Counted from the stretch's first letter, positions 398 through 63,268 are shown. The stretch: 64,000 nt of DNA from Patescibacteria group bacterium (GCA_028717685.1 JAQUNI010000001.1:399451-463450), one strand, 5' to 3'. The notes: generated by a model not told the origin, from the sequence alone. Program-made: numbers and translations.

Positions 398-499
398 AAA
401 ATTGAAAATGAAAAGCGAAAAATGATAATTTAAAATTAAAAAATTTTAGATTTTTATTTGTGGTTTTTCATTTTTAATTTTTAGTTTTCAATTTGAAAC

Positions 500-1078
500 A
501 TGCAGCTTATTCCTACTGTAATTGAAAAAACGCATTACGGCGAGCGGGCTTTTGATATCTATTCGCGGCTTCTAAAGGAACGGATTATTTTTTTAGGAAG
601 CTCAATTAACGACGCGGTAGCGAATACTGTGATTGCCCAGCTCTTGTTTTTAAATTCTGAAGATCAAGATAAGGATATCCAGCTTTTTATTAATTCGCCC
701 GGAGGTTCAGTCACGGCTGGTCTCGCGATCTACGACACAATGCAGTATGTGAAGCCTGAAATCTCCACGATTTGCATCGGTATGGCGGCGTCAATGGCAG
801 CGACTCTGCTTGCCGCGGGCGAGAAGGGTAAACGTTTCACCCTGCCCAACAGCGAAATCTTGCTGCATCAAATTATGGGCGGGGCAGAGGGTCAAGCGAG
901 CGATGTCGCCATTCGCGCGGGGCAAATTTTGAAAGTGAAAGACCGCTTGAATAAAATATTAGCCAAACATACCAGCCAACCCTTATCTAAAATTGAAAAA
1001 GACACCGACCGCGACTTTTATATGACCAGCGAGGAAGCAGTCAAATACGGGATTGCGGACAAGGTAATCAAAAAATAG
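500..1078 (+). CDS. clpP: ATP-dependent Clp protease proteolytic subunit
   Basis: The 192-aa product carries the conserved ClpP blocks (ERIIFLGS..., [19 protein letters not shown]..., MAASMAA) and has the typical length. Confidence 0.95.
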
Positions 1079-1177
1079 AAGCAAGAAGCTAGAATTAAGA
1101 ATCAAGAGTAAAAATACATATAAGGCAATATGGTTAAAATCTTGAAAACCCGAACAAACAAGAGAAAGGAGGTTGTA

Positions 1178-1420
1178 ATGCACTGGATAATAAAACTTGA
1201 ATCTAGATTTATTGAAGCAAAAGCATTGAAAGAAGATTTGAAAAATTTAAATTTATCTAATGATGTTCATTTAGAGCAGAATACTGATACTGGAGGGAGA
1301 ATAACTGCCGTCAGGATGTATATTCGGGAAGATAGAAGCAGAAATTTGATCCATCGAAAAATCAGAGAAGCTATACCGCTCTTTAATGGTTATGGTTATA
1401 AAGTGGAAAGAATAGAATAA
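1178..1420 (+). CDS. hypothetical small protein
   Basis: ORF with a Shine-Dalgarno AAGGAGG 7 nt upstream of the ATG at 1178. The longer ATG at 1130 lacks an SD. An intrinsic terminator follows. Confidence 0.5.
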   Translation: MHWIIKLESRFIEAKALKEDLKNLNLSNDVHLEQNTDTGGRITAVRMYIREDRSRNLIHRKIREAIPLFNGYGYKVERIE

Positions 1421-1427
1421 AGGGCAG

Positions 1428-1457
1428 ACGGAGAAATTGATCTCCGTTTTTTATTTT
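1428..1457 (+). terminator. rho-independent terminator (ACGGAGA-loop-TCTCCGT + T-run)
   Basis: 7-bp GC stem with a 6-nt loop, followed by TTTTTTATTTT. Confidence 0.7.
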
Positions 1458-1567
1458 AATATTTAACTTATATGAATTATCTCTATTATCGTTAATCGGA
1501 CGCGATATTTTTGTTATTTGCAATAAAAAAGAACGTTATAATAAGCTTTGACGGTCTTGGTAAAAAA

Positions 1568-1960
1568 TTACAGCGAGAATTTTTGAATTACTTTAGCGAT
1601 ATTAAAAAGGAAACCGAAAAGAAAATAAGCTAATTCAAATGCTATGACCAGAAAAAATGATATGCCAAAAATTTCAATCACTTTATTCTCTAGTGACAGA
1701 ATGCGAAATTTTTTGATGAAATTATGCACCTTAATCCCATGATTGAGCCAGAGAAGATAAGTAACGTACAGGCATCCTGTGATAAAAGCTTGACAAACAA
1801 TTATAATCGCGATACTACCATAAGGAACGTAATTAGTAGAAAGGACCAGAACAATGGAAAAAGGTATACCAATAATTAAAGCTTTAAACAATAACTTCAC
1901 TTTATGATCTAGACTAGATAACCTAGAAAAAACATTCTTAAAGAATAATTTTGCTTCCAT
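1568..1960 (-). CDS. hypothetical integral membrane protein
   Basis: 130-aa ORF with 3-4 hydrophobic helices and no recognisable motif. Confidence 0.45.
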   Translation of the reverse strand: MEAKLFFKNVFSRLSSLDHKVKLLFKALIIGIPFSIVLVLSTNYVPYGSIAIIIVCQAFITGCLYVTYLLWLNHGIKVHNFIKKFRILSLENKVIEIFGISFFLVIAFELAYFLFGFLFNIAKVIQKFSL

Positions 1961-2177
1961 ATCGACCTCCCTGATAAAAATTGGGTAAAGAACGCCCGAA
2001 AAAAGACTGGTTATCGTGATTGGGAAACAGTAAAGTTATTTGGCGGCACCACCTCCCTCTTCCTGATAATTTAGATTGCAAAGAACCGATTTTCAAAAAG
2101 ATTAGTATAGTATTATTTCATAAAAGGCTTAAATGGGCAAGAAGGCGTAGAAAGTTCTACGCCTTTATAAAACTTAA

Positions 2178-2208
2178 AAAACAAGCCCTTACAATGGCTT
2201 GTTTTTTA
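2178..2208 (-). terminator. intrinsic terminator downstream of gyrA (bidirectional hairpin)
   Basis: AACAAGCC-CTTACAAT-GGCTTGTT hairpin flanked by A-run and T-run. Confidence 0.65.
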
Positions 2209-2235: not shown

Positions 2236-4671
2236 TTACACCCAGGTTATGCTCGCGACTTTATCTTCGTTTTTGAAACGCATCAGGGTTACGCCTTGGG
2301 TAGAGCGAGATTGTTTGGAAATGGTGTTAATCAGCATCCGAATGACCTGACCGCGCGCGGATATCAGAATTAAGTCCTGTTCTTCTTTGCCTAAAATCTT
2401 CATCGCCACTAAATTTCCGTTTTTCGCCGTGATTTTTGCGGTTTTAATCCCTTTCCCGCCCCGCTTTTGGACTTTGTATAGATTCAAAGGCGTGCGTTTG
2501 CCATAACCTTTTTCCGTCACCACTAACACCTGAAAACCCGTAATCGCGTATTGGCGCGGGATAATTTCCATAGCAATTACAGCGTCCTCTTGTCCTAGAG
2601 TAATGCCTTTGACCCCTGCCGCGGTCCGACCCATCGGTCTAATATCCGCCTCGCGAAAACGAACAGATTGACCTCGCCGCGTCGCAAGCATCACTTCATC
2701 CGACCCGGTGGAGGCTTCCGCCCATTCCAGAACGTCGCCTTTGCGCAAACGAATCGCCACCAAGCCACTTCGGCGGACATTGGCATATTCAGAGAGTTTG
2801 GTCTTCTTCACCACTCCCTGCTCCGTCGCCATCACTAAATACTTAAATTTGTGTTCTTTGGGAATCGCGACCATCGCGGTGACTTTTTCCTCTGCCGCCA
2901 CTTGGATAAAATTCACAAGGAGCTGACCCTTAGCGGCGCGGCCTGATTCCGGAATCTCGTGAGCCTTAAGCTGAAAAACGCGGCCACGATCCGTGAAAAA
3001 GTATAAATCTGAATGAGTGGTAGTTACGAAACAACAGCGCATCACATCTTCTTCCTTAACCTTTTGGCCGGCGACGCCCTTGCCTCCTCGGCTCTGCGCC
3101 CGATAAACGTCAGGCTTCATCCGCTTAACATAGCCGCCGCGCGTCAGGCTAAGAATGGTTTCCTCATCGGCAATCAAATCTTCATCGGAAAATTCGCCCA
3201 CTTTTTTCTTAAAAACGCGCGTCCTGCGTTCATCGCCATATTTTTCTTTAAGCATTTTCAATTCTTCCTTGACCACGCCCCAAATCCTTTTCTCGGAAGC
3301 GAGAATGCCTTCCAATTCAGCGATGAGCGTCCGCTTTTCTTTTAATTCATCTAGAATTTTCTTCCGCTCTAAACCCGCCAAAGAAGACAAGCGCATTTCT
3401 AAAATCGCGGTCGTCTGCTCCTCTGTAAACTTAAATTTCTTCATTAAATTGCGATGCGCCAGTTCTTTGGTTTTACTCTCCCGAATGGTGGTGATCACGG
3501 CATCTAATTTATCCAAAGCCTTCTTTAAGCCTTCCAAAATATGCTCTCGCGCTTTCGCTTCCGCCAGATTAAAACGGGTGCGGCGGGTCACTACCTCCTT
3601 GCGATGGTCCAAATAACATTCTAAAATATTTTCCAAAGGTAAAACCCGCGGTTGAATACCATCCACGAGCGCGAGCATATTCACATGAAAAGTAGACTGC
3701 AGGGAGGTTAAAACAAAAAGACGATTCAAAACCTTCTGGGGGTAGGCTTCTTTTTTTAAAAAAATCACGAGCCGTATCCCTTCGCGGTCTGATTCGTCGC
3801 GGATATCGCGGATGCCTTGGATCTTTTTGTTCTTCACAAGCTCCGCGATTTTTTCAATAAGTAAGGTTTTATTTACTTGGTAGGGAAGTTCAGTAATAAT
3901 AATATCAAAACCGCCCTTCTTGGTTTCTATAATCTGTGTTTTCGCGCGCATCACAATTGATCCTCGCCCCAGAGCGTATGCTTGGCGAATAGCGCTATAA
4001 TCGTAAATCTGACCTCCGGTCGGAAAATCCGGCCCTTTAATATATTGCAGTAAATCCTCAACAGTGGCGCTTTCACGATGGTCAATTAAATAAGTAAGAG
4101 CGTCTACAACCTCGCCTAAATTATGCGGGGGGATATTCGTCGCCATTCCCACCGCGATCCCGATTGTTCCGTTTAAAATGAGTTCCGGAAAAAGGCCGGG
4201 CAAAACAGAGGGTTCTCTGCGCGTGCCGTCATAGTTATCCCGCCAGGGGACCGTCTCTTTATTTAAGTCGCGCATCATCTCCTCGGCAAAGGTCTGCATC
4301 CGCGCCTCGGTATAGCGCATCGCCGCCGGAGGATCGCCATCTATGGAGCCAAAATTTCCCTGGCTGTCGATTAAGGGATAGCGCATCTTGAATTGCTGCG
4401 CCAGATGCACCATAGAAGGATAAACAATCATCTCACCGTGGGGATGATAATTGCCCGAAACATCGCCGCAGATCTTGGCGCTCTTCCTAAAACGTCCGCG
4501 CGGGGAAAGCCCTAAGTCGTTCAAGGTTACCAAAATCCGCCGTTGGACCGGCTTTAAACCATCGCGCACATCAGGAAGCGCCCGATCAATAATGACGCTC
4601 ATTGCGTAATCCAAATAAGATTCCTCCATTTCTTCTGTAATTTGACGCGATTTTATGTAACCAAGTTCCAT
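2236..4671 (-). CDS. gyrA: DNA gyrase subunit A
   Basis: 811 aa. The N-terminus (RALPDVRDGLKPVQRRIL) and the beta-pinwheel C-terminal domain are conserved in GyrA. Confidence 0.97.
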   Translation of the reverse strand: MELGYIKSRQITEEMEESYLDYAMSVIIDRALPDVRDGLKPVQRRILVTLNDLGLSPRGRFRKSAKICGDVSGNYHPHGEMIVYPSMVHLAQQFKMRYPLIDSQGNFGSIDGDPPAAMRYTEARMQTFAEEMMRDLNKETVPWRDNYDGTRREPSVLPGLFPELILNGTIGIAVGMATNIPPHNLGEVVDALTYLIDHRESATVEDLLQYIKGPDFPTGGQIYDYSAIRQAYALGRGSIVMRAKTQIIETKKGGFDIIITELPYQVNKTLLIEKIAELVKNKKIQGIRDIRDESDREGIRLVIFLKKEAYPQKVLNRLFVLTSLQSTFHVNMLALVDGIQPRVLPLENILECYLDHRKEVVTRRTRFNLAEAKAREHILEGLKKALDKLDAVITTIRESKTKELAHRNLMKKFKFTEEQTTAILEMRLSSLAGLERKKILDELKEKRTLIAELEGILASEKRIWGVVKEELKMLKEKYGDERRTRVFKKKVGEFSDEDLIADEETILSLTRGGYVKRMKPDVYRAQSRGGKGVAGQKVKEEDVMRCCFVTTTHSDLYFFTDRGRVFQLKAHEIPESGRAAKGQLLVNFIQVAAEEKVTAMVAIPKEHKFKYLVMATEQGVVKKTKLSEYANVRRSGLVAIRLRKGDVLEWAEASTGSDEVMLATRRGQSVRFREADIRPMGRTAAGVKGITLGQEDAVIAMEIIPRQYAITGFQVLVVTEKGYGKRTPLNLYKVQKRGGKGIKTAKITAKNGNLVAMKILGKEEQDLILISARGQVIRMLINTISKQSRSTQGVTLMRFKNEDKVASITWV

Positions 4672-4675
4672 AAAT

Positions 4676-4768
4676 TTGGAATAAGGAATAAGGAATCATG
4701 AATTGAGAATAAAGAAATCTTTCCATTTTACTATTCCTGATTCATAATTCACAATTCCTAATTCCCTT
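4676..4768. repeat. AT-rich palindromic intergenic element, family D (word GGAATCATGAAT / ATTCATGATTCC)
   Basis: Inverted arms GGAATAAGGAATCATGAATTG ... CTGATTCATAATTCACAATTCC. Related copies lie at 19745-19832 and 51125-51160. Confidence 0.7.
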
Positions 4769-5381
4769 CTATTCTGAACACAAAATTAGACTGCTCTCTC
4801 GCTCCTTCGCTTTGGACGCCCATAATGGATAAAGTGAAAGGCTTGCCCGGATCTAGGGCGGAAAAATGCAAGGCGCCGCTTACTTCGCTTTTAGCCGCAA
4901 CCAAATCCGGCAGAGGGTAATCCACTACTTTTTCTCTTTCTAATTCTGAAAATTCTTTTCCCTCCTGAATAATCTTGATTTTACTCTCTCCGGAAGGGCG
5001 CAATAAAACCCGCTCCTCCCCTGTATTGCTAATAAATATATAGACCCAGGTTATCTTCTCCTTAAAAACTATATTCACAAGCGTAATTTCCACATTTCCC
5101 TTGTTCTGGGTTTCCCCTACCTCTTTGCGGAGCAAAACAGAGCCGCTGTCTTCGCTTTGAAATTGCTCCTTCGCACTACCCAGTCCTGAATCTAATCGCA
5201 TCCCTTCCTTGCCCTTCTCTAATATCTCTCCCAACCCTCCTAGGTTCTGGCTTACTTTCTGACTATTGATTCTGAAATTAAAAGTCTGCAACCAAAAAAT
5301 ACCAATACCGACCGCGCAAACAGCCACCAATAAAAAAACCACTTTTTGTTTAAAAGCAACTGATTTATTCTGCAAGCTCAC
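4758..5381 (-). CDS. hypothetical membrane-anchored protein
   Basis: 207 aa with an N-terminal TM helix. Its start overlaps the stop of the upstream MBL gene in an ATGA junction. Confidence 0.55.
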   Translation of the reverse strand: MSLQNKSVAFKQKVVFLLVAVCAVGIGIFWLQTFNFRINSQKVSQNLGGLGEILEKGKEGMRLDSGLGSAKEQFQSEDSGSVLLRKEVGETQNKGNVEITLVNIVFKEKITWVYIFISNTGEERVLLRPSGESKIKIIQEGKEFSELEREKVVDYPLPDLVAAKSEVSGALHFSALDPGKPFTLSIMGVQSEGAREQSNFVFRIEGN

Positions 5382-6022
5382 TGTTTTTTTAATATTTTAA
5401 TCTCGGTTTCCTCGCTAGTTAAGTCTTTTTTTCTGATCTTCAATTTATCCAGCTGCGACTCGGGCGATATCCCCATTTCTTCGCAGAATTTATTCAAAGG
5501 TTCAAGAGCTCTTTCTTTTTTCGCTCCGGGTAGATCATAATGCATAGGAATCACTAAACGCGGTTCAATTTGGCTTATGAGTTCGGGGATTTTGTCGCAA
5601 GATAAGGCATGTTTACTACCCGCAGAAACAAAAAGAATATCCACATCGCCCAAGGCGTCAACCATTTCCTCGGAGAGAAGATGCCCTAAATCGCCAAGGT
5701 GCACCAAAACCATACCTTCCACAACATAGCGGTAGATAATATTACCGCCGCGCTCTTTACCCTCTTTACCATCGTGAAAGGCGGGAAAACCTACAATGTA
5801 GACATCTTTCACCTCATACTCACCCGGGCTATCAATAATAAAAGGCTCGCCGATAATCCCTGAAACATAATTATGGTCATGATGGTTATGGCTCACAGTC
5901 ACAATATCAGCCTTGCTTTTTATACCCCTTAAACCCGTTTCAGGACCAAAAGGATCGGTAAGCAGAACCAGGTCTTTGATTTGAATTTTGAAACAAGAAA
6001 ATCCAAGCCAGGAGATAATCAT
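5378..6022 (-). CDS. MBL-fold metallo-hydrolase
   Basis: The HNHHDHNY (HxHxDH) metal-binding motif and later His/Asp residues are present. Confidence 0.8.
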   Translation of the reverse strand: MIISWLGFSCFKIQIKDLVLLTDPFGPETGLRGIKSKADIVTVSHNHHDHNYVSGIIGEPFIIDSPGEYEVKDVYIVGFPAFHDGKEGKERGGNIIYRYVVEGMVLVHLGDLGHLLSEEMVDALGDVDILFVSAGSKHALSCDKIPELISQIEPRLVIPMHYDLPGAKKERALEPLNKFCEEMGISPESQLDKLKIRKKDLTSEETEIKILKKQ

Positions 6023-6032: not shown

Positions 6033-6133
6033 GTAATTAGTAATTAGTAATCAGTAATTGGTAATCAGTAATCAGGGAATTATTGGCCCGAAGGGCCAAA
6101 AAAATTACCAATTACTAATTACGGATTACTAGT
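6033..6133. repeat. AT-rich palindromic intergenic element, family C (word GTAATTAGTAATCAG) with GGCCCGAAGGGCC core
   Basis: Near-perfect 100-nt palindrome. A related copy lies at 36066-36135. Confidence 0.75.
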
Positions 6134-7567: not shown

Positions 7568-7646
7568 TTGTAACTTATAACGTGTAACTTATAACTCAAG
7601 AAAATGCTAATACCTTGCGTTACAAGTTTCAAGTTACAAGTTATAA
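7568..7646. repeat. AT-rich palindromic element, family H (word GTAACTTATAAC / GTTACAAGTT)
   Basis: TAACTTATAACGTGTAACTTATAACT ... GTTACAAGTTTCAAGTTACAAGTTATAA. A partial relative lies at 18340-18370. Confidence 0.6.
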
Positions 7647-7650: not shown

Positions 7651-8619
7651 ATGATTATACTCAATAAAGTTCAAGAAGCAATTGAAAACCACAGACTAAT
7701 CAAAGACGGTGGAACGATTATCGTCGCTTGCTCTGGCGGTCCGGATTCGGTTTGCCTGACTCACATCTTGTGGCAATTACAAAAAAAGTTGGGATTCAAA
7801 ATCATTCTGGCGCATTTAAACCACAACTTACGGGGGAAAGAAAGCGATAGCGATAGCTGTTTTGTCCAAAAATTAGCAAAAGAACTAAACCTGCCCTTGG
7901 AAAATAAAAAGTTGCGGAGAAAGCCAAAAAACGAAGCAACCGCAAGAGAAGCCCGCTATACTTTCCTCGAACAAGTAAGAAAAAAACACGAGGGGCAGAG
8001 CATCGCGGCAGCGCACACGGCTGACGACCAAGCAGAAACTATTCTTTTGAACCTCTTGCGCGGAGCGGGGCTCGCCGGACTCGCGGGCATGCGGCATAAA
8101 AACAACTTCCTGATCCGTCCGCTTTTAGAATGCGGACGCGGAGAAATCCTCGGCTATCTTAAAGAAAACCGCCTTGCTTATCGCAACGACTCGTCAAATT
8201 TTGATTTAAAATATACCCGCAATAAAATCCGACACAAGCTCTTGCCTCTTCTGAAAAAAGAATACAATCCGCAAATTAGGAAAAATCTCCTCAAACTCGG
8301 AGAAGTGAGCCGCGCCGCAGAAGAGTATATTAGCGAGGAGGCTAAAAATTTTATCTGCCGCAATTCCAATCCTCTTCCCCTCAAATCTTGGCAAACCCTG
8401 CCTCCTATTTTAAAAACAGAAACCTTGAGGCAGATGATCGGCTCTGTCTTGGGTGGAGCCAAAGACATTTACGCCGTCCATCTAGAAGAGATGGTAAAAA
8501 TGCTGGAAAGCCCCCGCGGCAATAAAAAAAAGAACCTGCCGCGTGGGTTGCAGATTCTCAAGAAAGATGGTAGAATCTTAGTGTTTAGGGGGGATAAATT
8601 TAATGATTGGCGAATTTAA
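7651..8619 (+). CDS. tilS: tRNA(Ile)-lysidine synthetase
   Basis: PP-loop SGGPDS motif (ACSGGPDSV). The long ORF begins at 7615 inside the palindromic repeat, so the ATG at 7651 is the more likely start. Confidence 0.85.
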   Translation: MIILNKVQEAIENHRLIKDGGTIIVACSGGPDSVCLTHILWQLQKKLGFKIILAHLNHNLRGKESDSDSCFVQKLAKELNLPLENKKLRRKPKNEATAREARYTFLEQVRKKHEGQSIAAAHTADDQAETILLNLLRGAGLAGLAGMRHKNNFLIRPLLECGRGEILGYLKENRLAYRNDSSNFDLKYTRNKIRHKLLPLLKKEYNPQIRKNLLKLGEVSRAAEEYISEEAKNFICRNSNPLPLKSWQTLPPILKTETLRQMIGSVLGGAKDIYAVHLEEMVKMLESPRGNKKKNLPRGLQILKKDGRILVFRGDKFNDWRI

Positions 8620-10903: not shown

Positions 10904-10906
10904 AGA

Positions 10907-11044
10907 ATTTCTAATTTTCAATTTCTAATTTCTATTAAATTTTTAATAGGTTAATTTTCAAATACTTGTTTTAAAAGGAAGTTTAAAAATTAAAACATTA
11001 GAAATTTAATGAAAATTTGTGCTTGAAAATTGAAAATTAAAAAA
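10907..11044. repeat. AT-rich palindromic intergenic element, family A (arms AATTTCTAATTTCTATTAAATTT / AAATTTAATAGAAATTAGAAATT)
   Basis: About 140 nt with about 30-nt terminal inverted repeats. Further copies at 24498-24636, 27207-27347, 39521-39768 and 60899-61052. Confidence 0.8.
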
Positions 11045-11117: not shown

Positions 11118-11217
11118 CAATAAAAAGTGAAAAGTTAAAAGTTACAATTAAAAATTAAAGGTTCAAAATTTAAAATTGTAATTTTTAATTTTTCATTTTA
11201 CATTTTTAATTTATTCC

Positions 11218-11360: not shown

Positions 11361-11388
11361 TATAGAATCAAAATCAAATCAAAATTGA

Positions 11389-11489
11389 CCCCGTTAGAAA
11401 CATACCCCGCAGCTTGGCTAGCGGTTAACGTAGAAATATAGATAACTCGTGCGGTTGGGTTTCATGCCCCGCGCGAGTTTCTAACGGGG
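11389..11489 (+). other. long-loop hairpin with conserved arms CCCCGTTAGAAAC ... GTTTCTAACGGGG abutting a promoter -35
   Basis: 13-nt perfect inverted arms enclose a 75-nt GC-containing insert. The same arm sequence forms short hairpins at 32377-32408 and 60965-60996. Confidence 0.5.
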
Positions 11490-11518
11490 TTGACAAAAAA
11501 TTTTTGTAATGTTATATA
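11490..11518 (+). promoter_or_regulatory. sigma70-type promoter TTGACA-17-TATATA
   Basis: TTGACA at 11490-11495 and TATATA at 11513-11518. It drives ORF 11572-11913, which has a GGAGG SD. Confidence 0.65.
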
Positions 11519-19621: not shown

Positions 19622-19744
19622 GGGGAACATCCCGAGAAATAAACCTCACAGAAATAAAAACACCTTTATTTAAGGGTGTTTTTATGTTTTGTAATTTAAA
19701 ATTCCAATTCCAAAATCACAAATTCTAAATAAACTTGAGTTCGA

Positions 19745-19832
19745 ATCGGGAATCAGGAATCATGAATGAGGAATTGAATTTTATAATTTATTCTTCTTTA
19801 TTCCTGATTCATAATTCATAATTCATGATTCC
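19745..19832. repeat. AT-rich palindromic element, family D copy
   Basis: GGGAATCAGGAATCATGAATGAGGAATTG ... TTCCTGATTCATAATTCATAATTCATGATTCC. Confidence 0.7.
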
Positions 19833-19837
19833 AGAGA

Positions 19838-21339: not shown

Positions 21340-21458
21340 AACAAGTTCAAAATTCAAAGTTCCCGCCTGCCATCACCTGCTGGCGAAGCCAATGGCGGGC
21401 AGGCAAAATTCAAAGTTACAATTTCATTTACAATCAACTTTAAACTTTGCACTTTGAA
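21340..21458. repeat. AT-rich palindromic element, family E (word CAAAGTTCAAAGTGCAAAG) with GC-rich core GCCTGCCAT...ATGGCGGGCAGGC
   Basis: Related copies at 25812-25980 and 63178-63268. Confidence 0.7.
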
Positions 21459-21465
21459 CTCTTAA

Positions 21466-23913: not shown

Positions 23914-24507
23914 TCATCTTAAATTGCGTCCGCAAACACCCGTTAAAAAATCCACCTTCTCTTCCAAAGAGAGAGCGGTAAGCATAATATGCACCAGCCT
24001 GTCTTCCCCCCAAAATATTAAATGATCAATGTATTCCGCTATAACCTCATCGGCATCTACCGCTTTTTCCGCGCTATGGCCAAATTCATCTACCGCGCTC
24101 CAGACCACCCACGAGTCCGGGTCAGCGGAAAAATAATAATGACTGCGCTCACGATGCAAACTGCCGTCCAGCACATAGTAACGAATATATTGTATAGGCT
24201 CCAGGGTATGACCGTCTTGGAACATAATCTCCGCCGGCGGGGGACTATCCGGGTCATCGGAAACAGGAGGCAGATCGGTCACCAATTCTTGAGATTGCCG
24301 CAAATCACGGGTGATGCGATCCAGGGCGACGCGACCGTTTTGGGCTAATTCCACCTTTTTGTTTTCTTTCTCCGTAAAGCGCAAAGCTAAATCATAAGAA
24401 GCATAGGCAAGTAAAACAACAACTAAACCTACACTGATAGCCACTAAGATTTCGGCTAGCGTAAAACCTTTTTGGGAATTTAAATTAACCATTTTACGAA
24501 TTTTCAA
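23914..24507 (-). CDS. type IV pilin-like protein (prepilin N-terminal methylation motif)
   Basis: ...NSQKG|FTLAEILVAISVGLVVV, a class III signal with G-1/F+1/E+5. Confidence 0.7.
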   Translation of the reverse strand: MKIRKMVNLNSQKGFTLAEILVAISVGLVVVLLAYASYDLALRFTEKENKKVELAQNGRVALDRITRDLRQSQELVTDLPPVSDDPDSPPPAEIMFQDGHTLEPIQYIRYYVLDGSLHRERSHYYFSADPDSWVVWSAVDEFGHSAEKAVDADEVIAEYIDHLIFWGEDRLVHIMLTALSLEEKVDFLTGVCGRNLR

Positions 24508-24636
24508 TTTCTAATTTTCAATTTTTATTAAATTTCTAATGATTTAATTTTTAAACTTCCTTATTAAGAAATGAGTGTTTGAAAATTGATTCATTGAAAA
24601 TTTAATAGAAATTAGACATTGAAAATTAAAAATTAA
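24498..24636. repeat. AT-rich palindromic intergenic element, family A copy
   Basis: AATTTTCAATTTCTAATTTTCAATTTTTATTAAATTT ... AAATTTAATAGAAATTAGACATTGAAAATT. Confidence 0.8.
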
Positions 24637-25047: not shown

Positions 25048-25126
25048 TATGGATTTACATCCGTGGCGTTCCAACGCGGGGGTAAAGGCGTAATTATGTT
25101 TATTGGACATAAATTATGCTAATTGT

Positions 25127-25251
25127 TCTAATTGACCTAATTGTTCTAAATAATGACCAAACCCCAATGTCTAATGTCTAAAATTTTGGTCATTTCACCA
25201 TTGGTCATTGGGATTTAGTTAGAAATTAGAAATTAGAACAATTAGAATAAT
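25127..25251. repeat. AT-rich palindromic intergenic element, family B (word AATTGTTCTAATTGACCTAAT / ATTAGAACAATTAGAATAATT)
   Basis: Copies at 40733-40890 and 43470-43621 share the arms and a central CCCAATG...CATTGGG core. Confidence 0.8.
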
Positions 25252-25318
25252 TTTAATGGAATCTTGCCGCGCCCGCTCTGGAAGCTTCGCTTCAAGCGAG
25301 GCGGGTTGGCACTTTGGA

Positions 25319-25834
25319 TTAATAGTTGATAAAGCCCGCGGGACGCACATCAATGGTCTTCACTTCATCATAACGATTAGCAAGGTCAATCTGACCCGCG
25401 TCCACCACTCCGCCCGCCGTGGTGAACTGAATCTCTGGATTGCTTAAATCGCGCAATTCCCGAATCTCAATATCGGAATCCAGGGTTTCGGTTTGGATCG
25501 TCTCCGGCAAATAACCGCCAGGATTTTCAGGATCTGGATTTAAACGGATAATCTCATAATTCCTCTTGCCTACTAAATCAAACCACACTAAATAGGTTAT
25601 CTGCTCCGTAACTGTTTTCTGCTGCGCCAATCTTAAATTCTGGACAACTTTCTCGGTCTCGCGAGAGAGTTTGTAGGTCGGCGCGAATCTCCGAAAACTA
25701 AAAAGCGTAATCGCGGCTAGGATAGAAAAGATAGACAATACGATTAATAATTCTATTAAGGTAAATGCCTTATGGTTATAGTGACTGTAATATCTACCCA
25801 TTTTGAAATAAAGAGTTAAAAGTTCAAAGTGCAA
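25319..25834 (-). CDS. type IV pilin/pseudopilin (prepilin-type N-terminus ...HKA|FTLIELLIVL)
   Basis: Class III signal motif. The true start is probably the internal MGRYY. Confidence 0.65.
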   Translation of the reverse strand: MHFELLTLYFKMGRYYSHYNHKAFTLIELLIVLSIFSILAAITLFSFRRFAPTYKLSRETEKVVQNLRLAQQKTVTEQITYLVWFDLVGKRNYEIIRLNPDPENPGGYLPETIQTETLDSDIEIRELRDLSNPEIQFTTAGGVVDAGQIDLANRYDEVKTIDVRPAGFINY

Positions 25835-25980
25835 AGTGAAAAGTTGAATTCAAAGTTTAAAGTTTCTTTTGCAAAGCGATTGCTTCGCAATAATTTTGCA
25901 CTTTGAACCGCCCACCCGCAACGCTTTGCTTGCATGGCGGGCGCGGCAACTTTGAATTTTGAACCTTGAATTTTGCACTA
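25812..25980. repeat. AT-rich palindromic element, family E copy with GC core (CGCCCACCCGCAACGC...GCATGGCGGGCGCGG)
   Basis: Arms AAAGTTCAAAGTGCAAAGTG ... CACTTTGAACC / CAACTTTGAATTTTGAACC. Confidence 0.7.
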
Positions 25981-27206: not shown

Positions 27207-27347
27207 GAGAATTTTCAATTTCTAATTTTTAATTTTTATTAAATTTATAATTAACTAATTTTTAAACTTGTGTCAATCAGGAGGTAAGGGTTTGAAAATT
27301 AACTCATTAAAAATTTAATAGAAATTAGAAATTGAAAATTAGAAATT
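27207..27347. repeat. AT-rich palindromic intergenic element, family A copy
   Basis: Same arms as 10907-11044. Sits between pilB and pilC. Confidence 0.8.
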
Positions 27348-29100: not shown

Positions 29101-29174
29101 AAGTCAAAGGTTAAAAGTAATATAAAAGACTTTTAACTTTTGAGTCGCAGTTTTACCTTTTGCCTTTTAACTTT
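29088..29174. repeat. AT-rich palindromic element, family F copy
   Basis: AAAGCGCAAAAGTCAAAGGTTAAAAG ... CTTTTAACTTTTGAGTCGCAGTTTTACCTTTTGCC. Confidence 0.65.
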
Positions 29175-36070: not shown

Positions 36071-36135
36071 GAATAATAGTAATCAGTAATTAGTAATCGG
36101 TAATTGGTAATTAGTAATTGGTAACTTATAACTAA
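36066..36135. repeat. AT-rich palindromic element, family C copy
   Basis: AGTAATCAGTAATTAGTAATCGGTAATTGGTAATTAGTAATTGGTAAC. Confidence 0.65.
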
Positions 36136-38671: not shown

Positions 38672-38699
38672 AATTTCTTCGTTGTTTTATCAAAATAAT

Positions 38700-38820
38700 A
38701 AATCCAAAATCCAAACATCAAATTTCAAATCAAATCCAAAATCCTAATCCCAAAATTTTGAGTTTCGGATTTTGAGCTTTGAGCTTGATTTGGCATTTGG
38801 GCTTTGAAATTTGGATTTAA
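38700..38820. repeat. AT-rich palindromic element, family G (word AATCCAAAATCC / GGATTTTGAG)
   Basis: AATCCAAAATCCAAACATCAAATTTCAAATCAAATCCAAAATCC ... GGATTTTGAGCTTTGAGCTTGATTTGGCATTTGGGCTTTGAAATTTGGATTT. Confidence 0.65.
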
Positions 38821-39512
38821 GCCCTATGAAAAAATTTTCTGCCCTGGAAAAAAATTTAGATGTGAAATTTAAAAATCAAGACTTATTGAAACAGGCTCTT
38901 GTCCATCGCTCCTATATTAACGAAAATCCCGGATTTCGCCTCCCCCACAATGAAAGATTGGAATTCTTGGGCGACGCGGTCTTGGAACTTATAGTAACGG
39001 AAAATCTTTTTAATCATTACAATAACCCTGAAGGAGAAATGACCAATTGGCGCTCCAGCCTGGTCAACAGCAAAATATTGGCCATTGTCTCCCGCGACCT
39101 CGGCGTGGAAGATTTTCTCTATTTGTCTAAAGGCGAGACGCGCGACACAGGCAAGGCGCGGGAATATATTTTAGGCAATGCCTTTGAAGCCATCACCGGC
39201 GCGATTTATTTAGATCAAGGCTATGCTGTCACGAGGAGATTTATAAAAAACAAGCTGCTGACGCATCTGCCTAAAATTCTGGCTGAAAAATTATACATTG
39301 ATCCCAAGTCGCATTTTCAAGAACTTACGCAAGAAAAAGAAGGCGTTACTCCTGAATACAAAGTTTTAGAAGAGAGAGGTCCGGATCACGCGAAACACTT
39401 TGAGGTGGGGGTTTACGTGGGAAAAATGATGATGGGCAAGGGCAAAGGCACTTCTAAACAATTGGCGCAGGTGGAAGCGGCGAAAGACGCGCTGGAAAGA
39501 TATAAAAAATAA
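38811..39512 (+). CDS. rnc: ribonuclease III
   Basis: RNase III signature ERLEFLGDAVLE plus a C-terminal dsRBD. Confidence 0.9.
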   Translation: MDLSPMKKFSALEKNLDVKFKNQDLLKQALVHRSYINENPGFRLPHNERLEFLGDAVLELIVTENLFNHYNNPEGEMTNWRSSLVNSKILAIVSRDLGVEDFLYLSKGETRDTGKAREYILGNAFEAITGAIYLDQGYAVTRRFIKNKLLTHLPKILAEKLYIDPKSHFQELTQEKEGVTPEYKVLEERGPDHAKHFEVGVYVGKMMMGKGKGTSKQLAQVEAAKDALERYKK

Positions 39513-39520: not shown

Positions 39521-39768
39521 AGGTTAAAATTTCTAATTTCTAATTTTTCTGGCTTCGCCAGATCTCGCATAGCGAGACAATTTTTATTAAATTTTTAATA
39601 AAATAATTTCTAAACTTTAAGAATGAATTGCCTAGCCGCCAGTTAGGCTAGCGGGAATAGCTTTTCCATTATAAATGGTAAATGAGTTACGAGAATTTGA
39701 TCTTTATTTGTTTAAAAATTAAGTAAATAGAAATTTAATAAAAATTAGAAATTGAAAATTAAAAATTA
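39521..39768. repeat. composite intergenic element: family A arms enclosing a CTGGCTTCGCCAGATCTCGCATAGCGAGAC module and other hairpins
   Basis: Family A arms at both ends. The inner module is shared with 62925-62990. Contains GCCTAGCCGCCAGTTAGGCTAGCGG hairpins. Confidence 0.65.
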
Positions 39769-40732
39769 CTTAAAAACACTCCAAGATTTGTTTGAGAGTC
39801 TAAGAGTTAATCAAGCCGTTGGCAAAATAGCAATTTTAGGGGTATTATTTGCCGCTATTTTTTTGTCTTTTTCCGTCTCTCGCGCCCAAAACACCGCTCC
39901 CGAACGGACAATCACAATCATTGACAACGGCCTTTATTTCCAGGTTAAAACAGAGAAAAATTTAGTTTCGGAAATCCTGGTTGATTTGGACCTATCCTTA
40001 AATCCTGAAGATAGAATTTATCCCAGCCTAAACGAAGAAGCCCTCTGGCGCATTATCATTGAAAGGGCAACCCCAATCACAATCCTTGCTGATGGAAAGG
40101 CAAAATCTCTTGTTACCTTTGCTAAAACCGCGGGGGCGGCATTAGAAGAAGCCCAAATCACATTGAATCCTGATGATGAAGTGAATTATGCTGCGGACAC
40201 GTCCCTTTTTTCCAATATGGAGATTGTAGTGACCAGAATCAAACTTGGCACTGTCACCAAAGATGTGTCCATACCATTCCAAACTGTGAATAAAAAAGAC
40301 GACACGCTGCTCTGGGGAAAATTCAAAATCGCCCAGGAAGGAAAAACAGGGCTCAAAGAACAGGTATATAAAGTAATCTATAAAAACGGCGAAGAAGCAA
40401 AACGGATTTTGGAAAAAGAAACCATTTTGCAAAAACCTCAAGATAAGATTATCCTGGAGGGAACAAAAATAGTGCTAGGGGAGGCGAATTACGGCATCGC
40501 CAGCTTCTACCGCTATGGCGATAAATTGACTTGCGCGTCCACGCGTTTTCCCATGGGAACACCCTTGCGGGTCACGAACACGGCAAACGGACAAGCGGTA
40601 ATTGTAACCGTGAATGATTATGGCCCTTTTGTGCTGGGACGGATTGTGGATTTAAACATACCGGCATTTGAAAAAATCGCGCCCCTCGGAACAGGATTGG
40701 CAAGAGTGAAGGTGGAGGAAATAATAGATTGA
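39752..40732 (+). CDS. RlpA-like (double-psi beta-barrel) domain protein with N-terminal DUF348/G5-like region
   Basis: C-terminal ...IASFYRYGDKLTCASTRFPMGTPLRVTNTANGQAVIVTVNDYGPF, the RlpA/3D DPBB. TTG start in the ORF track, and the start is uncertain. Confidence 0.7.
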   Translation: MKIKNYLKTLQDLFESLRVNQAVGKIAILGVLFAAIFLSFSVSRAQNTAPERTITIIDNGLYFQVKTEKNLVSEILVDLDLSLNPEDRIYPSLNEEALWRIIIERATPITILADGKAKSLVTFAKTAGAALEEAQITLNPDDEVNYAADTSLFSNMEIVVTRIKLGTVTKDVSIPFQTVNKKDDTLLWGKFKIAQEGKTGLKEQVYKVIYKNGEEAKRILEKETILQKPQDKIILEGTKIVLGEANYGIASFYRYGDKLTCASTRFPMGTPLRVTNTANGQAVIVTVNDYGPFVLGRIVDLNIPAFEKIAPLGTGLARVKVEEIID

Positions 40733-40890
40733 AATTATTCTAATTAACCTAATTGTTCTAATTATTCTAAAGAATGACCAAATCTTGAATTACCCAATGA
40801 TTTACCTTGATGATTGTTTTTGTTAATTGGGATTTAGACATTGGGATTTATTTAGGTTAATTAGGTCAATTAGAACAATTAGAATAATTT
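40733..40890. repeat. AT-rich palindromic intergenic element, family B copy
   Basis: GAAATTATTCTAATTAACCTAATTGTTCTAATTATTCTAAAGAATGACC ... GGTCAATTAGAACAATTAGAATAATTTT. Confidence 0.8.
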
Positions 40891-43469: not shown

Positions 43470-43621
43470 CAATAAAATTTCTAATTGCTTTAATTGTTCT
43501 AATTATTCTAAATAATGACCAAATCCCAATGACCAATACCCAAAAGATTATTTGGGATTTAGACATTGGGAATTGGGATTTAGTTAGGTCAATTAGGTTA
43601 ATTAGAATAATTAGAATAATT
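43470..43621. repeat. AT-rich palindromic intergenic element, family B copy
   Basis: Arms AATTGTTCTAATTATTCTAAATAATGACC ... GGTCAATTAGGTTAATTAGAATAATTAGAATAATT. Confidence 0.8.
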
Positions 43622-51360: not shown

Positions 51361-51368
51361 ACGATCCT

Positions 51369-58329: not shown

Positions 58330-58640
58330 GGAGAAATGAAAAGTGAAACCCCCTAAATCCCCTTTATCAGGGGGATTTTAATTTCTTCCTTCTGTGACCC
58401 ACGCGCTCTAGGAGAGAGTTGTTGGCTCCATAGTGGCGTTAGCCCTATGGAGTCAGGATGCAAGCCGTAAAGAAAAAATATGATCAGACTTTAATGCTGT
58501 TTCGCATTGCGGCTCCACAGCCTGCCCGCCATCGCTTGCGCTTCAGGCGTTAGCGGGCGGGCCCCTCGCTTCGCTCGGGGACTATGGAGCCAACAGACCC
58601 CCTCCAACTCCCCCTTGGTAAGGGGGAGTGAAATCAAGCC
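58330..58640. repeat. composite GC-rich repeat island with 14-nt outer inverted arms GTTGGCTCCATAGT / ACTATGGAGCCAAC enclosing about 146 nt
   Basis: Arms at 58421-58434 and 58581-58594. Inner modules CCTGCCCGCCATCGCTTGCGCTTCAGGCGTTAGCGGGCGGGC. Flanked by hairpins CCCCTTTATCAGGGGG and CTCCCCCTTGGTAAGGGGGAG. Confidence 0.7.
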
Positions 58641-60898: not shown

Positions 60899-61052
60899 AA
60901 AATAGAAATTTCTAATTTTAAATTTTCAATTTCTATTAAATTTCTAATGACTAAATTTTCAAACCCCGTTAGAAATGAAAAATTTCTAAACGGGGCAAAC
61001 AGTTTAAAAATTAATTCATTGAAAATTTAATGAAAATTGAAAATTGAAAATT
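60899..61052. repeat. AT-rich palindromic intergenic element, family A copy carrying an internal CCCCGTTAGAAAT...ATTTCTAAACGGGG hairpin
   Basis: Arms AATTTCTAATTTTAAATTTTCAATTTCTATTAAATTT ... AAATTTAATGAAAATTGAAAATTGAAAATT. Confidence 0.8.
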
Positions 61053-61059
61053 TTTCAAA

Positions 61060-61530
61060 TTACGCCCTGCGAATTGCCTTTACTAATAAAATCACTACTC
61101 CTGCAACAATCATTATATCCGCGACATTAAACACCGGCCAAAATGCCAAGTTCAAATAATCTATCACATAACCAAAGCGGAGGCGGTCAAGCACGTTAGA
61201 GAACGCGCCTGCTCCCAACAGCACTAAACCGCAAAGAGAGGAAAAATCTTTTTTTTGCCAAAATTTCCGCCCCCAGTAATATAAAAACACGCAAAGCAAT
61301 GCCGTAATTAAATAAAAAAACACGACAGACCACGCGCCATCGCTGGACGGGGCGGGCAGGGGAATCCCGAAAGCAATGCCGTAATTACGGTAAAATTCCA
61401 AAGAAAAAAAATGACCTAAAATAAAAAAATTGGGTCTGCCCGCGAGAACATAGCCAGCCCAATTTTTTAAAATTTGGTCTAAGATGAATAACCCTCCCGC
61501 CAGTGCAAAACACCACTTAAGTTTGCGCAT
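61060..61530 (-). CDS. lspA: lipoprotein signal peptidase (signal peptidase II)
   Basis: 4 TM segments, with conserved Asn/Asp blocks (...FNVADI...). Confidence 0.85.
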   Translation of the reverse strand: MRKLKWCFALAGGLFILDQILKNWAGYVLAGRPNFFILGHFFSLEFYRNYGIAFGIPLPAPSSDGAWSVVFFYLITALLCVFLYYWGRKFWQKKDFSSLCGLVLLGAGAFSNVLDRLRFGYVIDYLNLAFWPVFNVADIMIVAGVVILLVKAIRRA

Positions 61531-61631
61531 AAAAATATAGGAATGAGTAAAACGTAATGGATAATGTGTAATTTATCAGCCTGCAACCCACTATTCTCTT
61601 ATTGCGCATTACGGGTATTACGCATTGCACA

Positions 61632-62093
61632 TCATTTCTTCTGCGCGCATTCTAAACAAATCGGCGCCCTCGGAAAAACCTCCAACCTTTTTGGATTGAT
61701 CGGCTGCGCGCATTTTTCGCAGATGCCATAAGTGCCTGCCTTCATTTTGGCTAGGGCATTGTTAATCTTAAGCAGGTCCACCTCCAGAGTGCCATGCAGC
61801 GCCAACCGATCATAGTATTCAGTCACCTCCATCGCGTTTTCATCAGGCTTAGTGCCGAAAGAGGGGAATTTAGCGTCATAATCACCCTTTACCTTTTTAT
61901 CTTTAACCGCGATTTTCTTTAATTCCTTCTCAAGCTCTTTTTTGTCTTGCTCTAATTTCTTCCTTAATTCCTTGAGCACCTTTCCTTTTAATCCCGCATT
62001 TTTAGGCTTCTTATCCTTATTGCCTAAGATATCGGGAAATTTTGGTTTAGGAATTTTAGTAAAATCTAGTTTGGGGATCTTGGGGAATTTCAT
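61632..62093 (-). CDS. DksA/TraR-family C4 zinc-finger protein
   Basis: C-terminal CEKCAQPI...CLECAQ four-Cys zinc finger, plus an N-terminal coiled coil. Confidence 0.7.
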   Translation of the reverse strand: MKFPKIPKLDFTKIPKPKFPDILGNKDKKPKNAGLKGKVLKELRKKLEQDKKELEKELKKIAVKDKKVKGDYDAKFPSFGTKPDENAMEVTEYYDRLALHGTLEVDLLKINNALAKMKAGTYGICEKCAQPINPKRLEVFPRAPICLECAQKK

Positions 62094-62261
62094 AAAATTA
62101 GTTTTTTATTTTTAGTCCTGCAACCTTAATCTAAGTTTATAATACCCGACAAGAAAAGGCAAGGATTAAATTTTTAATTTTTAATTTTCATTAAATTTTC
62201 AAGAAATTAATTTTTAAACCTCTTTTATTTCCTAATTAGTATAGGTTTCTTTAAATTGCGA

Positions 62262-62318
62262 AACCCACCCCCCCCCCCTGCCTTGAGCGGGGAGGCAAGA
62301 GGGGGTGGGAGCTCCAAT
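62262..62318 (-). repeat. family R GC-rich repeat copy (inverted orientation)
   Basis: Reverse complement reads GGAGCTCCCACCCCCTCTTGCCTCCCCGCTCAAGGCAGGGGGGGGG. The 78-aa ORF 62225-62461 translates through it and is probably spurious. Confidence 0.75.
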
Positions 62319-63177
62319 GCCCCACCTACAGTCTCTAGAGGGAGGAATATTTTATGATTTTGGAAGTTTTCATAATGCACACTAGGCTTTTTAAAAAAAA
62401 TAAACAAAAAAACAGCCTTATCCAAATTAAGCCTGTCTTCTTTTAAGAGAAACAGGGGCAAGATAGCCCGCGATATATATTGTTTAAGGGGGCATCTGCC
62501 CCTGTGTTAGATTGGAATACTCCAACCTCGACCCCAAAATACCAAAAGGTAAATGAGGTCGATTGGAATTCCAGTCTTTTTTTTGGCTGTAGTGGTCAAC
62601 TACTGGCCGTCTTCTACTACTGACCTCCCTTGCGGGAGATTCTTTTCCGCTTTTAAGTACAAAGAGCTATTTTTTGGACTGCACCCTGAAATTCAATAAC
62701 TTCCAGCTGAATTTAAGGCGTTATCAAACTTTAGGGCGCAGTCCATTTTGTAGTTTTTGTTTTTGTTTTTGCTATTGACCTAGAATAGCGAATTTTTAGA
62801 GTAGCAGAAGAAAAACCCAATCACAAATAGGGGGAACTTGTGATTGGAGTTCTCTCCACTACTCTATAAACAAAACAGAAAATTGATTGTCTGTGTTTAT
62901 AAATGTACCCTCTTTTTATTCAATTTTTCTGGCTTCGTCTAGCTTTGCCAGATCTTTATGACCAGATCTCGCAGAGCGAGACTATATCCAGTATAGCATA
63001 GAAAAAATCCCATGTCAATCCGTGTGGATAACTAAAAAACCCAATTAAAGCCTATTCTTCAATAATAAGTTGTTTCAGCCTAAAATAAACAAAACAATCA
63101 ATATTTTTCCCTTTTCCCTTCCTTATTTTTCCTTTTAAACAGTGGATAAACTGTGCACAACTGGATAAGCGAAAAAC

Positions 63178-63268
63178 TAAAAGTAAAAAGTTAAAAGTGG
63201 AGATTCAAATTTGTCAATTTGCAATTTAAAATCACAACTTTGCACTTTGAATTTTGAACTTTTAACTT
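63178..63268. repeat. AT-rich palindromic element, family E copy
   Basis: AAAAGTTAAAAGTGGAGATTCAAATTTG ... CAACTTTGCACTTTGAATTTTGAACTTTTAACTT. Confidence 0.7.

Follow-up and report, generated by a model that had tools for sequence, protein, structure and literature searches.

The 64,000-nt stretch of DNA analyzed here (JAQUNI010000001.1:399451-463450; hereafter the window) comes from a genome of the Patescibacteria, or candidate phyla radiation (CPR). Its intergenic spacers carry long AT-rich palindromes that are built from tandem copies of short, mostly heptameric words. Family A of these palindromes is the form without an open reading frame (ORF) of a cassette of the intervening sequence (IVS) type, which in other genomes encloses a gene for a four-helix-bundle protein. 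The genome lies near 'Ca. Doudnabacteria' metagenome-assembled genome (MAG) L003. The PilB protein of the window is 98% identical to that of L003 and 90% identical to that of a second MAG, L004, and its relatives beyond these two share at most 57% identity and are all Patescibacteria. At the DNA level, the identity of the pilus region to the window is ~92% for L003 and ~78% for L004. The window has ~42% G+C and a coding density of 81%. It contains housekeeping genes (clpP, gyrA, rpsA for S1, tilS, ftsH, iPGM, smc, rpsP and nusB), a type IV pilus cluster (pilB, pilC, three pilin genes, pilM and pilN) and the genes of two nucleases, RNase III and RNase Y. An Rfam scan of the whole window at gathering thresholds returned four tRNAs only, and no family that matches the palindromes.

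A preliminary description of this DNA reported long AT-rich inverted repeats of tandem short words, grouped into families A to H. The elements are indeed present where they had been placed, as seen with Tandem Repeats Finder (TRF) and a repeat finder, and the copy counts of the families hold in the window. The statement that nearly every spacer carries such a palindrome was too strong, since full palindromes occur in 20 of the 44 spacers of at least 50 nt (~45%). Their enrichment over a dinucleotide-shuffle model is borne out. When the best gapless inverted repeat of each of these 44 spacers was compared with dinucleotide-preserving shuffles, the top repeat was matched in at most 1% of the shuffles for 22 spacers. 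Spacers without palindromes hold canonical terminators, promoter regions or GC-rich hairpins. Together the palindromes amount to ~2.5 kb by summed element lengths, about one fifth of the non-coding DNA of the window. Folded as RNA, they have z-scores of about -2.2 to -8.5. The word, given earlier as 6-12 nt, has by TRF a period of 7 nt in all families but B, where it is 9 nt; periods of 14 and 21 are found alongside 7. Non-coding DNA as a whole has the same period, with an autocorrelation of 0.341 at lag 7 versus 0.30-0.31 at lags 6 and 8 and with echoes at lags 14, 21 and 28, whereas coding DNA has period 3 only. All of the copies in the window, at least 20 from at least eight word families (Table 1), lie in mRNA or tRNA spacers and none in rRNA, and all are ORF-less. 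There is a trend with spacer orientation: palindromes are found in 18 of 34 co-directional spacers and in 2 of 10 others (Fisher p = 0.08).

Table 1. Palindromic elements, half elements and the RNase III gene of the window (MFE, minimum free energy; z, folding z-score; GC, GC-rich)
Position	Feature	Setting	Remarks
392..494	Unnamed palindrome (AAAATGA / AAAATTG)	DHHA1-domain gene stop 397, clpP ATG 500	Period 7/14; inverted-repeat score 20 vs shuffle maximum 15; MFE -31.2, z -7.5; not in the preliminary description
4678..4765	Family D (GGAATAA / GGAATCA / TGAATNN)	Directly upstream of gyrA (minus strand)	MFE -32.2, z -5.2
6033..6131	Family C (GTAATTA / GTAATCA)	Divergent spacer	Loop GC hairpin GGCCCGAAGGGCC; 87% complementary; period 7/14/21; observed inverted-repeat score reached by 0/100 shuffles
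7569..7642	Family H (GTAACTTATAAC x2 facing GTTACAAG...)	4 nt before likely tilS ATG 7646	
10906..11038	Family A, ORF-less	From 2 nt past ftsH stop to 7 nt before tRNA-Met	z -3.3
11123..11212	Unnamed palindrome (AAAAGTT / AAAATTA)	Fills tRNA-Met/tRNA-Ala spacer	MFE -24.8, z -7.2; not in the preliminary description
18394	Family D half array		
19743..19831	Family D	Convergent spacer, downstream of canonical terminator 19654-19685	
21341..21463	Family E (CAAAGTT / CAAAATT) with nested GC-rich hairpin	pilM-pilN spacer	0/100 shuffles reach score
22527..22618	Family F (AAAAGTC / AAAAGGC facing ACTTTTA)	Upstream of pilM	
24499..24634	Family A, ORF-less	Between two pilin genes	z -5.1
25111..25253	Family B (9-nt words AATTGTTCT / AATTGACCT; inner motif AATGACCAAA)	Followed by GC-rich hairpin 25256-25312	96% arm pair
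25814..25975	Family E with two nested GC-rich hairpins	Between pilC and pilin gene	
27210..27347	Family A, ORF-less	Exactly fills pilB-pilC spacer: stop abuts one end, pilC ATG 7 nt from other	z -5.4
29101..29174	Family F	Between iPGM gene and pilB	
36077..36134	Family C one-armed array (GTAATCA / GTAATTA x6.9), then GTAACTTATAAC		TRF score 61-71; no matching right arm and no significant inverted repeat (shuffle test); putative half element or remnant
38699..38819	Family G (AAATCCA)	Between nusB and RNase III gene	z -3.3
38811..39512	RNase III gene, plus strand		Ribonucleas_3_3 1e-39; dsrm 3e-15
39528..39768	Family A, interrupted	Downstream of RNase III gene	Double-hairpin mini-insert 39550-39578 and 94-nt loop insert
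40732..40890	Family B	From stop codon of G5/DPBB gene, upstream of smc	
43479..43621	Family B	Between smc and rpsP (S16)	
51133	Family D half array		
60906..61052	Family A with nested CCCCGTTAGAAA...TTTCTAAACGGGG loop hairpin	Between lspA and Mg-chelatase-like gene	84% complementary; MFE -45, z -8.5
62169..62245	Family A half copy, left arm only		Aligned through AATTTTTAAAC, divergent beyond
63179..63268	E/F-type (AAAAGTA AAAAGTT AAAAGTG facing AACTTTG CACTTTG)	1 nt short of stop-codon end (63270) of minus-strand gene 63270-63959	

The elements have a common anatomy. The outer part is an array of 3-6 tandem words, and next to it lies an inner segment that is unique. The center is a variable loop, 4-100 nt long, in which small GC-rich hairpins are often nested, and the mirror of array and inner segment completes the element. 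In the window the elements are 75-240 nt long and their arms 23-58 nt, with 70-96% complementarity. The arms had been described as long and perfect, but they are 70-87% complementary, and the exception at 96% is the short 23-nt pair of the family B element at 25111. The heptamers consist of 4-5 conserved and 2-3 variable bases (for example AATTT+NN, GTAAT+NN, GGAAT+NN, AAAGT+NN and AAATC+NN), and the variable bases are mostly unpaired between the arms. Because these 5+2 words have unpaired variable positions that do not covary, the sequences suggest that something besides base pairing constrains the arrays, for which protein recognition is a candidate. The elements fit closely between genes, starting 0-15 nt past the upstream stop codon and ending 4-10 nt ahead of the downstream start codon or tRNA, with no Shine-Dalgarno sequence between. 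In the predicted fold of the element at 27210, pairing at the stem base joins the region of the pilB stop codon to that of the pilC start codon. Families A and B are dispersed and have conserved non-repetitive inner segments.

The identity of family A was established outside the window. We scanned metagenome contigs with a pattern for its left arm, (AATTTNN)x3-ATTAAATTT, and obtained >120 matches, almost none of them from the species of the window; viral contigs gave 0 matches. Among the matches listed, 5 of 120 loci are similar to the window over any 300 nt, at ~65% identity. Many of the matches listed belong to complete A-type palindromes, and at 19 CPR loci among them 430-460 nt separate the two arms, with an ORF of 120-130 aa in between. 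This ORF is Avd-like and matches PF05635 (23S_rRNA_IVP, 8e-16) and TIGR02436 (four helix bundle protein, 8e-22). Two further ORF-bearing cases with the same arms, P0017 and P0079, were found via protein similarity alone. The start ATG and the stop of the ORF lie within the inner arm segments (...TTTTCAATGAC...AAAC and GTTTAGAAATTA...), and these segments are kept in the ORF-less copies. Since the start and stop are built into the conserved inner arms, we favor the view that complete cassettes lost the ORF over the view that it was gained. By size, complete A-type elements form two groups: those lacking the ORF measure ~100-170 nt, and those with the ORF 460-502 nt. The number of words per arm is variable. 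Of 33 flanking genes, 32 have the orientation of the ORF (p = 8e-9), and the corresponding polarity is seen for ORF-less copies in 13 of 17 informative cases, three of them in the window (p = 0.05). No flanking direct repeats that could be target-site duplications were found at 20 complete A-type elements.

Individual loci show where such cassettes can reside. Contig L172 has the ORF-bearing form in its pilB-pilC spacer, the counterpart of the site at 27210 in the window; the same spacer of L170 holds no cassette and has an opposite-strand pilin-like gene instead. In L137, an A-type palindrome is present in the 16S rRNA gene (5180-5400, minus strand) as a 161-nt insertion at a hairpin tip, at Rfam model positions ~457-465, where the bacterial consensus has 7 nt. 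Heptamer arrays and palindromes also occur at other CPR loci, some of which share the C, G and H words of the window. We infer from the common architecture, and from the similar words in other CPR contigs, that families B-H belong to the same class as A. As a separate observation, the Rfam family DUF3800-V small RNA adjoins a four-helix-bundle cassette in the CPR contig L135 (512-608).

Cassettes of this kind are familiar from rRNA genes. The 428-nt IVS of the Coxiella 23S rRNA gene combines a terminal stem with an ORF for S23p, a four-helix-bundle protein, and GACAGAT heptamers are repeated in tandem in its 5' arm; it is excised by RNase III, and its repeat number differs among strains (PMC4990558). 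In the CPR, 23S_rRNA_IVP ORFs are found in insertions of the 16S and 23S genes, and there are many uncharacterized ORF-less insertions of <200 bp that are suspected IVSs (PMC11270868). Like family A, the rRNA IVSs of Leptospira, Coxiella, Brucella and the CPR have terminal inverted repeats that give a long stem. They share with A-type elements of related loci the optional PF05635 ORF of ~120 aa in sense orientation and the size, about 430-500 nt with the ORF and <200 nt without it. Their usual location at rRNA hairpin tips is that of the L137 copy. Unlike rRNA IVSs, the copies of the window lie between protein or tRNA genes without an ORF, and they differ also in their very high density, at ~45% of the larger spacers, and in having at least eight word families. 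Excision from the transcript by RNase III, with no religation, is a feature of the IVS, and an RNase III gene (38811-39512) is present in the window. The palindromes are best filed as hairpin cassettes of the IVS type that lack an ORF in this CPR genome and colonize its mRNA and tRNA spacers.

Heptamer arrays are associated with PF05635 genes across phyla, which we consider the most interesting outcome of this work. When plasmids were searched by tblastn with a CPR four-helix-bundle protein, 30 records were obtained, 15 of them from Nostoc, and 12 loci were inspected. At 11 of the 12, inverted tandem-heptamer arrays abut the start and stop of the four-helix-bundle gene. The recurrent order runs from a stop codon through a heptamer array to the four-helix-bundle ORF, and on through the inverted array to a start codon. 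This layout occurs in Cyanobacteria, Chloroflexota, Bacteroidota and Spirochaetota, and each locus has its own word: AATTCGT / ACGAATT in Nostoc flagelliforme and in Dolichospermum (which also has AATTTGG), AATTCGC / GCGAATT in Nostoc punctiforme, AAGTAAA in Anabaena, TTTACGA and AATCCCC in Planktothrix, TCTAAAA in Gloeocapsa, TCACTGG in Euhalothece, TCTTCNN in Pseudanabaena, ATGAATT in Chlorohelix, CAGTNAN in Chondrinema and GAAAGNG (~40 copies) in Treponema. The word follows the similarity of the four-helix-bundle proteins by no simple rule among the plasmid loci. The close Nostoc and Dolichospermum proteins go with a common word, AATTCG[T/C], and those of Euhalothece and Chondrinema with CAGTNAN; the proteins of Planktothrix and Gloeocapsa are also similar, but their words differ. 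Of the 12 genes, 10 are in sense to their annotated neighbors, for example drmD-pglX, helicase-methylase, resistance-nodulation-division (RND) adaptor-permease and 3-ketoacyl-ACP synthase (KAS) III-hydrolase. At the Pseudanabaena locus, the annotated neighbor in the stretch examined is the downstream cas1 only. The exceptions are Anabaena (between cas2 and cas1) and Euhalothece, with both neighbors on the other strand. To provide a control, we scanned a 50-kb stretch of a Nostoc plasmid, which has 65 genes, for period-7 arrays. Ten were found, four of which flank the two four-helix-bundle genes of this stretch. Another four form two close ORF-less pairs, of which CAATTCG / AATTGCG is clearly inverted and AAATTCA / AATTTTG partly complementary, and the remaining two are isolated.

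These arrays bear on a group of repeats that have been described without a gene. The heptamer repeats of Beggiatoaceae, of cyanobacteria (short tandemly repeated repetitive sequences, STRR) and of Bacteroidetes (TAACTGA) have no established function; like those of the window, STRR-type repeats are intergenic tandem heptamers with lineage-specific words that often abut start codons (PMC4679880; 10.1101/2022.06.06.494920). As published, they are direct repeats with no gene link, and for Beggiatoa just one inverted set was described, whereas the arrays of the window belong to palindromes with a unique inner segment. The arrays of the Nostoc plasmid resemble those of the window in forming inverted pairs, with or without a four-helix-bundle ORF. 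We found no published link of heptamer arrays to four-helix-bundle genes beyond the Coxiella IVS, in a library that is incomplete, so that a prior description is possible. PF05635 proteins resemble Avd of the diversity-generating retroelements, a pentameric four-helix bundle that works with a reverse transcriptase (PMC10053308). Unlike the case of Avd, no reverse transcriptase, template repeat or variable repeat was found next to the cassettes examined. Tandem interspaced guide RNA (TIGR-Tas) arrays were considered and set aside; the elements are dispersed single palindromes and not regularly spaced arrays.

Several plasmid cassettes with heptamer arms sit in defense operons: L216 in Planktothrix (drmD-pglX), L214 in Anabaena (cas2-cas1), L224 in Pseudanabaena (before cas1), L220 and L219 (helicase-methylase) and L223 (DUF1156-HEPN). 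PF05635 genes inside cas loci have been noted before and read as functional partners (PMC3936711). The four-helix-bundle genes in defense operons may instead be selfish insertions and not components of the systems.

The comparison with related genomes for presence or absence of the elements, which the preliminary description had proposed, proved informative. At the same spacers, elements are present, absent or replaced in L003 and L004. L003 has, at both A sites of the pilus cluster, a variant A' with the words AATTTTA / AATTCTA and a different loop, which is identical in the two L003 copies but inverted. Copies within one genome are 74-85% similar and orthologous copies 59-71%, and the flanking genes are ~92% identical. 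In place of the family F element at 29101, L003 has CAATTGN words and GC hairpins, and its spacer corresponding to the family E site (25835, element 25814..25975) carries another word family, CAATTGN / TTGTTCA. In L004, four or five of the pilus spacers share a single family, AAAATCA / AAAATGT. At the site of the B element at 25111 L004 has a ~20-nt spacer and no element, and at the site of the A element at 24499 a 48-nt spacer only. These comparisons show the elements to be multi-copy, fast-evolving and dispensable for the operon. The best reading is that they act as selfish repeats with fast turnover and not as conserved regulatory sites. Two contigs from public short-read assemblies of the species (Logan), L001 (25226-27239) and L002 (25816-27237), break off inside B, E and A elements.

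We consider it probable that the palindromes are miniature gene-less copies of selfish, MITE-like (miniature inverted-repeat transposable element) hairpin cassettes of the IVS type, which tolerate read-through. The cassettes occupy transcribed spacers, chiefly those of co-directional genes, and elsewhere rRNA hairpin tips. The following steps can be envisaged. Host transcription would read through the element. The arms would then pair into a long A/U-rich stem, which would loop the element out and bring the stop and start codons together. By analogy with the processing of the rRNA IVS (PMC4990558), the RNase III encoded in the window is a candidate trans-acting nuclease for these hairpins and would cut the stem. 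Such cleavage would allow the insertion to be tolerated in operons and rRNA alike.

Several points weigh against this reading. A master copy with a four-helix-bundle gene is putative for this genome; no PF05635 gene was found in the 64-kb window, L003, L004 or 80 pilB loci with tblastn and a hidden Markov model (HMM) from 120 homologues. ORF-bearing relatives of families B-H were not found either. The ORF-bearing loci of family A were found by the arm pattern, which biases them to A-type arms around the ORF, so that P0017 and P0079 are the only independent cases. The stems are broken every 5 bp by variable positions, which do not covary between the arms. For 23 A-type elements, these positions match 241 times between the two arms, versus 269 expected from random arm pairings. 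Pairing is therefore not the sole constraint. The deficit is probably an asymmetry inherited from the ORF-bearing ancestor. RNA folding energies of the sense and antisense strands are mixed, with no trend and thus no G:U signature of constraint at the RNA level, in a test that strand-biased mutation would confound. Cleavage by RNase III, read-through and mobility of the elements are each deduced indirectly.

Among the other explanations, the one that fares best holds that the arrays are protein-binding units, one per heptamer, for a cold-shock protein, S1 or the four-helix-bundle protein, and are kept for tuning translation or mRNA stability. We regard such a role as unlikely. That the arrays are protein-binding sites, as the preliminary description had allowed, is plausible in itself. 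The 5+2 words, whose variable positions show no covariation from arm to arm, point that way. The arrays also end 4-10 nt before start codons without a Shine-Dalgarno sequence, and the S1 gene is present in the window. CspB binds one protein per heptamer, and for Beggiatoa and Nostoc it has been suggested that heptamer repeats ahead of start codons are sites for regulators (PMC4679880; 10.1101/2022.06.06.494920). However, relatives with 92% and 78% identity have other words or no element at the orthologous spacers, and a conserved role for each gene is hard to reconcile with this replacement and absence. Protein binding alone would also leave the inverted symmetry and the ORF-bearing forms unexplained.

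The dispersal of the palindromes could be attributed to conventional enzymes. Repetitive extragenic palindromic (REP) sequences and bacterial interspersed mosaic elements (BIME), enterobacterial repetitive intergenic consensus (ERIC) sequences, Correia elements and repeat units of pneumococcus (RUP) are extragenic imperfect palindromes in transcribed spacers, with many copies and with species-specific variants at orthologous positions; an influence on mRNA stability has been proposed for them (compare PMC3333891). In these respects the elements of the window resemble them. On this account the elements would be classical mobile miniatures moved in trans, either like REP/BIME by a REP-associated tyrosine transposase (RAYT) or like MITEs with the terminal inverted repeats of an insertion sequence, and the ORF would be cargo that landed in hairpin loops as the nested GC hairpins did. 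We hold this to be quite improbable. The dispersed palindromic families, the species-specific variants at orthologous sites and the breaks in assemblies agree with it, as do the loops that accept nested insertions. In contrast to REP/BIME, which are 20-40 nt long with a GTAG head and a RAYT, the elements of the window are 75-240 nt, built from heptamers and start with a word array; no GTAG-type head was found on them, and no RAYT or Y1_Tnp match and no transposase in the ~50 window genes. The associated gene encodes a four-helix-bundle protein and not a Y1 transposase. The missing target-site duplications, the ORF start and stop built into the conserved inner arms, and the occurrence of the ORF-plus-arrays layout with unrelated words in at least four other phyla speak against cargo moved by such an enzyme. 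The label 'MITE-like', used in the preliminary description, is right in substance for family A, whose short non-autonomous copies share both termini with a longer gene-bearing form, are dispersed in many copies and are polymorphic for presence. These are not classical MITEs, since there is no target-site duplication and the long form encodes a PF05635 protein only, not a known transposase.

It had also been suggested that the palindromes are bidirectional terminators or attenuators. We judge a role as transcription terminators, bidirectional or not, very unlikely, though long stable hairpins directly past stop codons invite it and a few elements are found between convergent genes or where a gene ends (19743-19831; 63179-63268). 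Their AT-rich stems have interruptions, no T tract follows the 3' arm, and the GC stems that a terminator combines with such a tract are missing. A terminator scan of the pilus cluster (19500-31000) gave 13 sites versus 13.5 expected in shuffles, and none at the elements; canonical terminators exist elsewhere in the window, for example at 19654-19685. The downstream genes start 4-10 nt past the element. No promoter fits into such a gap, so that these genes would be silenced if termination were efficient. An A-type element inside a 16S rRNA gene, and the sense ORF carried in relatives, are further difficulties for this idea. A promoter scan of the pilus cluster had its best match in the divergent spacer 30816-30789, and one 10/12 promoter-like match lies inside the element at 27210.

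Least likely of all is an origin in place, by slippage that expands heptamers and template switching that makes quasi-palindromes, with copies alike by convergence: many bacteria have the heptamer as their most frequent long unit of simple-sequence repeats, for which polymerase slippage has been proposed as the cause (cited in PMC4679880), and word number varies per arm as it does among Coxiella strains, but dispersal is beyond the reach of slippage, and the 30-60 nt of non-repetitive inner sequence that families A and B share across loci and species, like the loop that two L003 copies share in opposite orientation, contradict it for these families. Slippage probably modulates the number of words.

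Returning to the cassettes, we tentatively raise a wider proposal, which we see as possible rather than probable. Inverted heptamer arrays and the pentameric PF05635 protein could constitute one class of mobile cassette. The arrays would be recognition sites, with ~1 heptamer per subunit, and the cassettes would be excised from transcripts at the stem and would spread without a transposase, possibly via RNA. The link between repeats and cassette predicts that RNase III cuts the stems, that the four-helix-bundle protein binds the arrays and that array count tracks PF05635 copy number.

Beside the AT-rich palindromes, there is a second and separate layer of repeats. GC-rich hairpin families (CTCCCCCTNNGGNAGGGGGAG; GCCCGCC...GGCGGGC; GGCTCCATAG...CTATGGAGCC) occur at 18280-18315, 25256-25312, 25886-25945, 35190-35230, 48537-48651, 51166-51330 and 58340-58630, clustered in convergent or long spacers or nested in E and B elements. 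A GC-headed small hairpin family, CCCCGTTAGAAAT...ATTTCTAACGGGG, is found at 11388-11490, 32373-32402 and 60964-60997. Its members stand alone, enclose other sequence as a pair, or lie within AT-rich palindromes, in a loop or an arm, and L003 has them too (for example at 8520-8560 and 4560-4640), in some cases where the window has none. Double mini-hairpin inserts, such as TGGCTTCGCCA with GATCTCGCATAGCGAGAC, lie at 39550-39578 and 62926-62985. They recur in L133 (650-685, as GTCCCTTCGGGAC with TCTCCCGTAGGGAGA), in L086 and in the pilB-pilC spacer of L004, with UUCG-type loops and at an identical position within the A-type arms of unrelated contigs. These inserts recall the very small nested repeats known from cyanobacteria. 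Pairs of GC-rich hairpins that resemble each other, for example GGACGCCCCGTCGAATGACGGGGCGAACCC and GGGGCACCCTGTTGAATAACAGGGTGAACCC, lie 3' of tRNA-Gly (33320-33412) and tRNA-Pro (34350-34452) on the minus strand, with no Rfam match.

Two other regions deserve mention. An ORF of 1255 aa at 44682-48449 has no Pfam match and is preceded by a DUF5663 gene; over 44-48 kb, the region of this ORF, AT skew is very strong (0.34-0.37). Two non-coding stretches of ~1.2 kb, 50811-52033 and 62094-63269, form strong local hairpins, for example at 51656-51731. They match no Rfam family at gathering score and could be unannotated RNAs or small genes.

The elements have practical consequences for annotation and assembly. 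The TTG starts called by the ORF finder at 7615, 24507, 38811 and 39752 fall within or at the edge of repeat arrays. Start codons called within arrays are probably wrong, and the true start is probably the first ATG just past the element, such as 7646 for tilS. In element-rich CPR genomes, short-read assemblies would be fragmented at most operon spacers. Though CPR genomes are small and streamlined, about one fifth of the non-coding DNA of the window consists of fast-evolving hairpin repeats that break such assemblies. The link between arrays and cassette bears on the identity of the rRNA IVS and its ORF, on the origin of the cyanobacterial heptamer repeats, and on the PF05635 genes that are wedged in cas loci, in operons of the BREX (bacteriophage exclusion) and DISARM (defense island system associated with restriction-modification) systems, and in housekeeping operons. 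If the wider proposal is true, a single mechanism would cover the rRNA IVSs, the CPR spacer palindromes and two groups of heptamer repeats, the STRR that have been known from cyanobacteria since 1990 and those of the TAACTGA type in Beggiatoa and Bacteroidetes.

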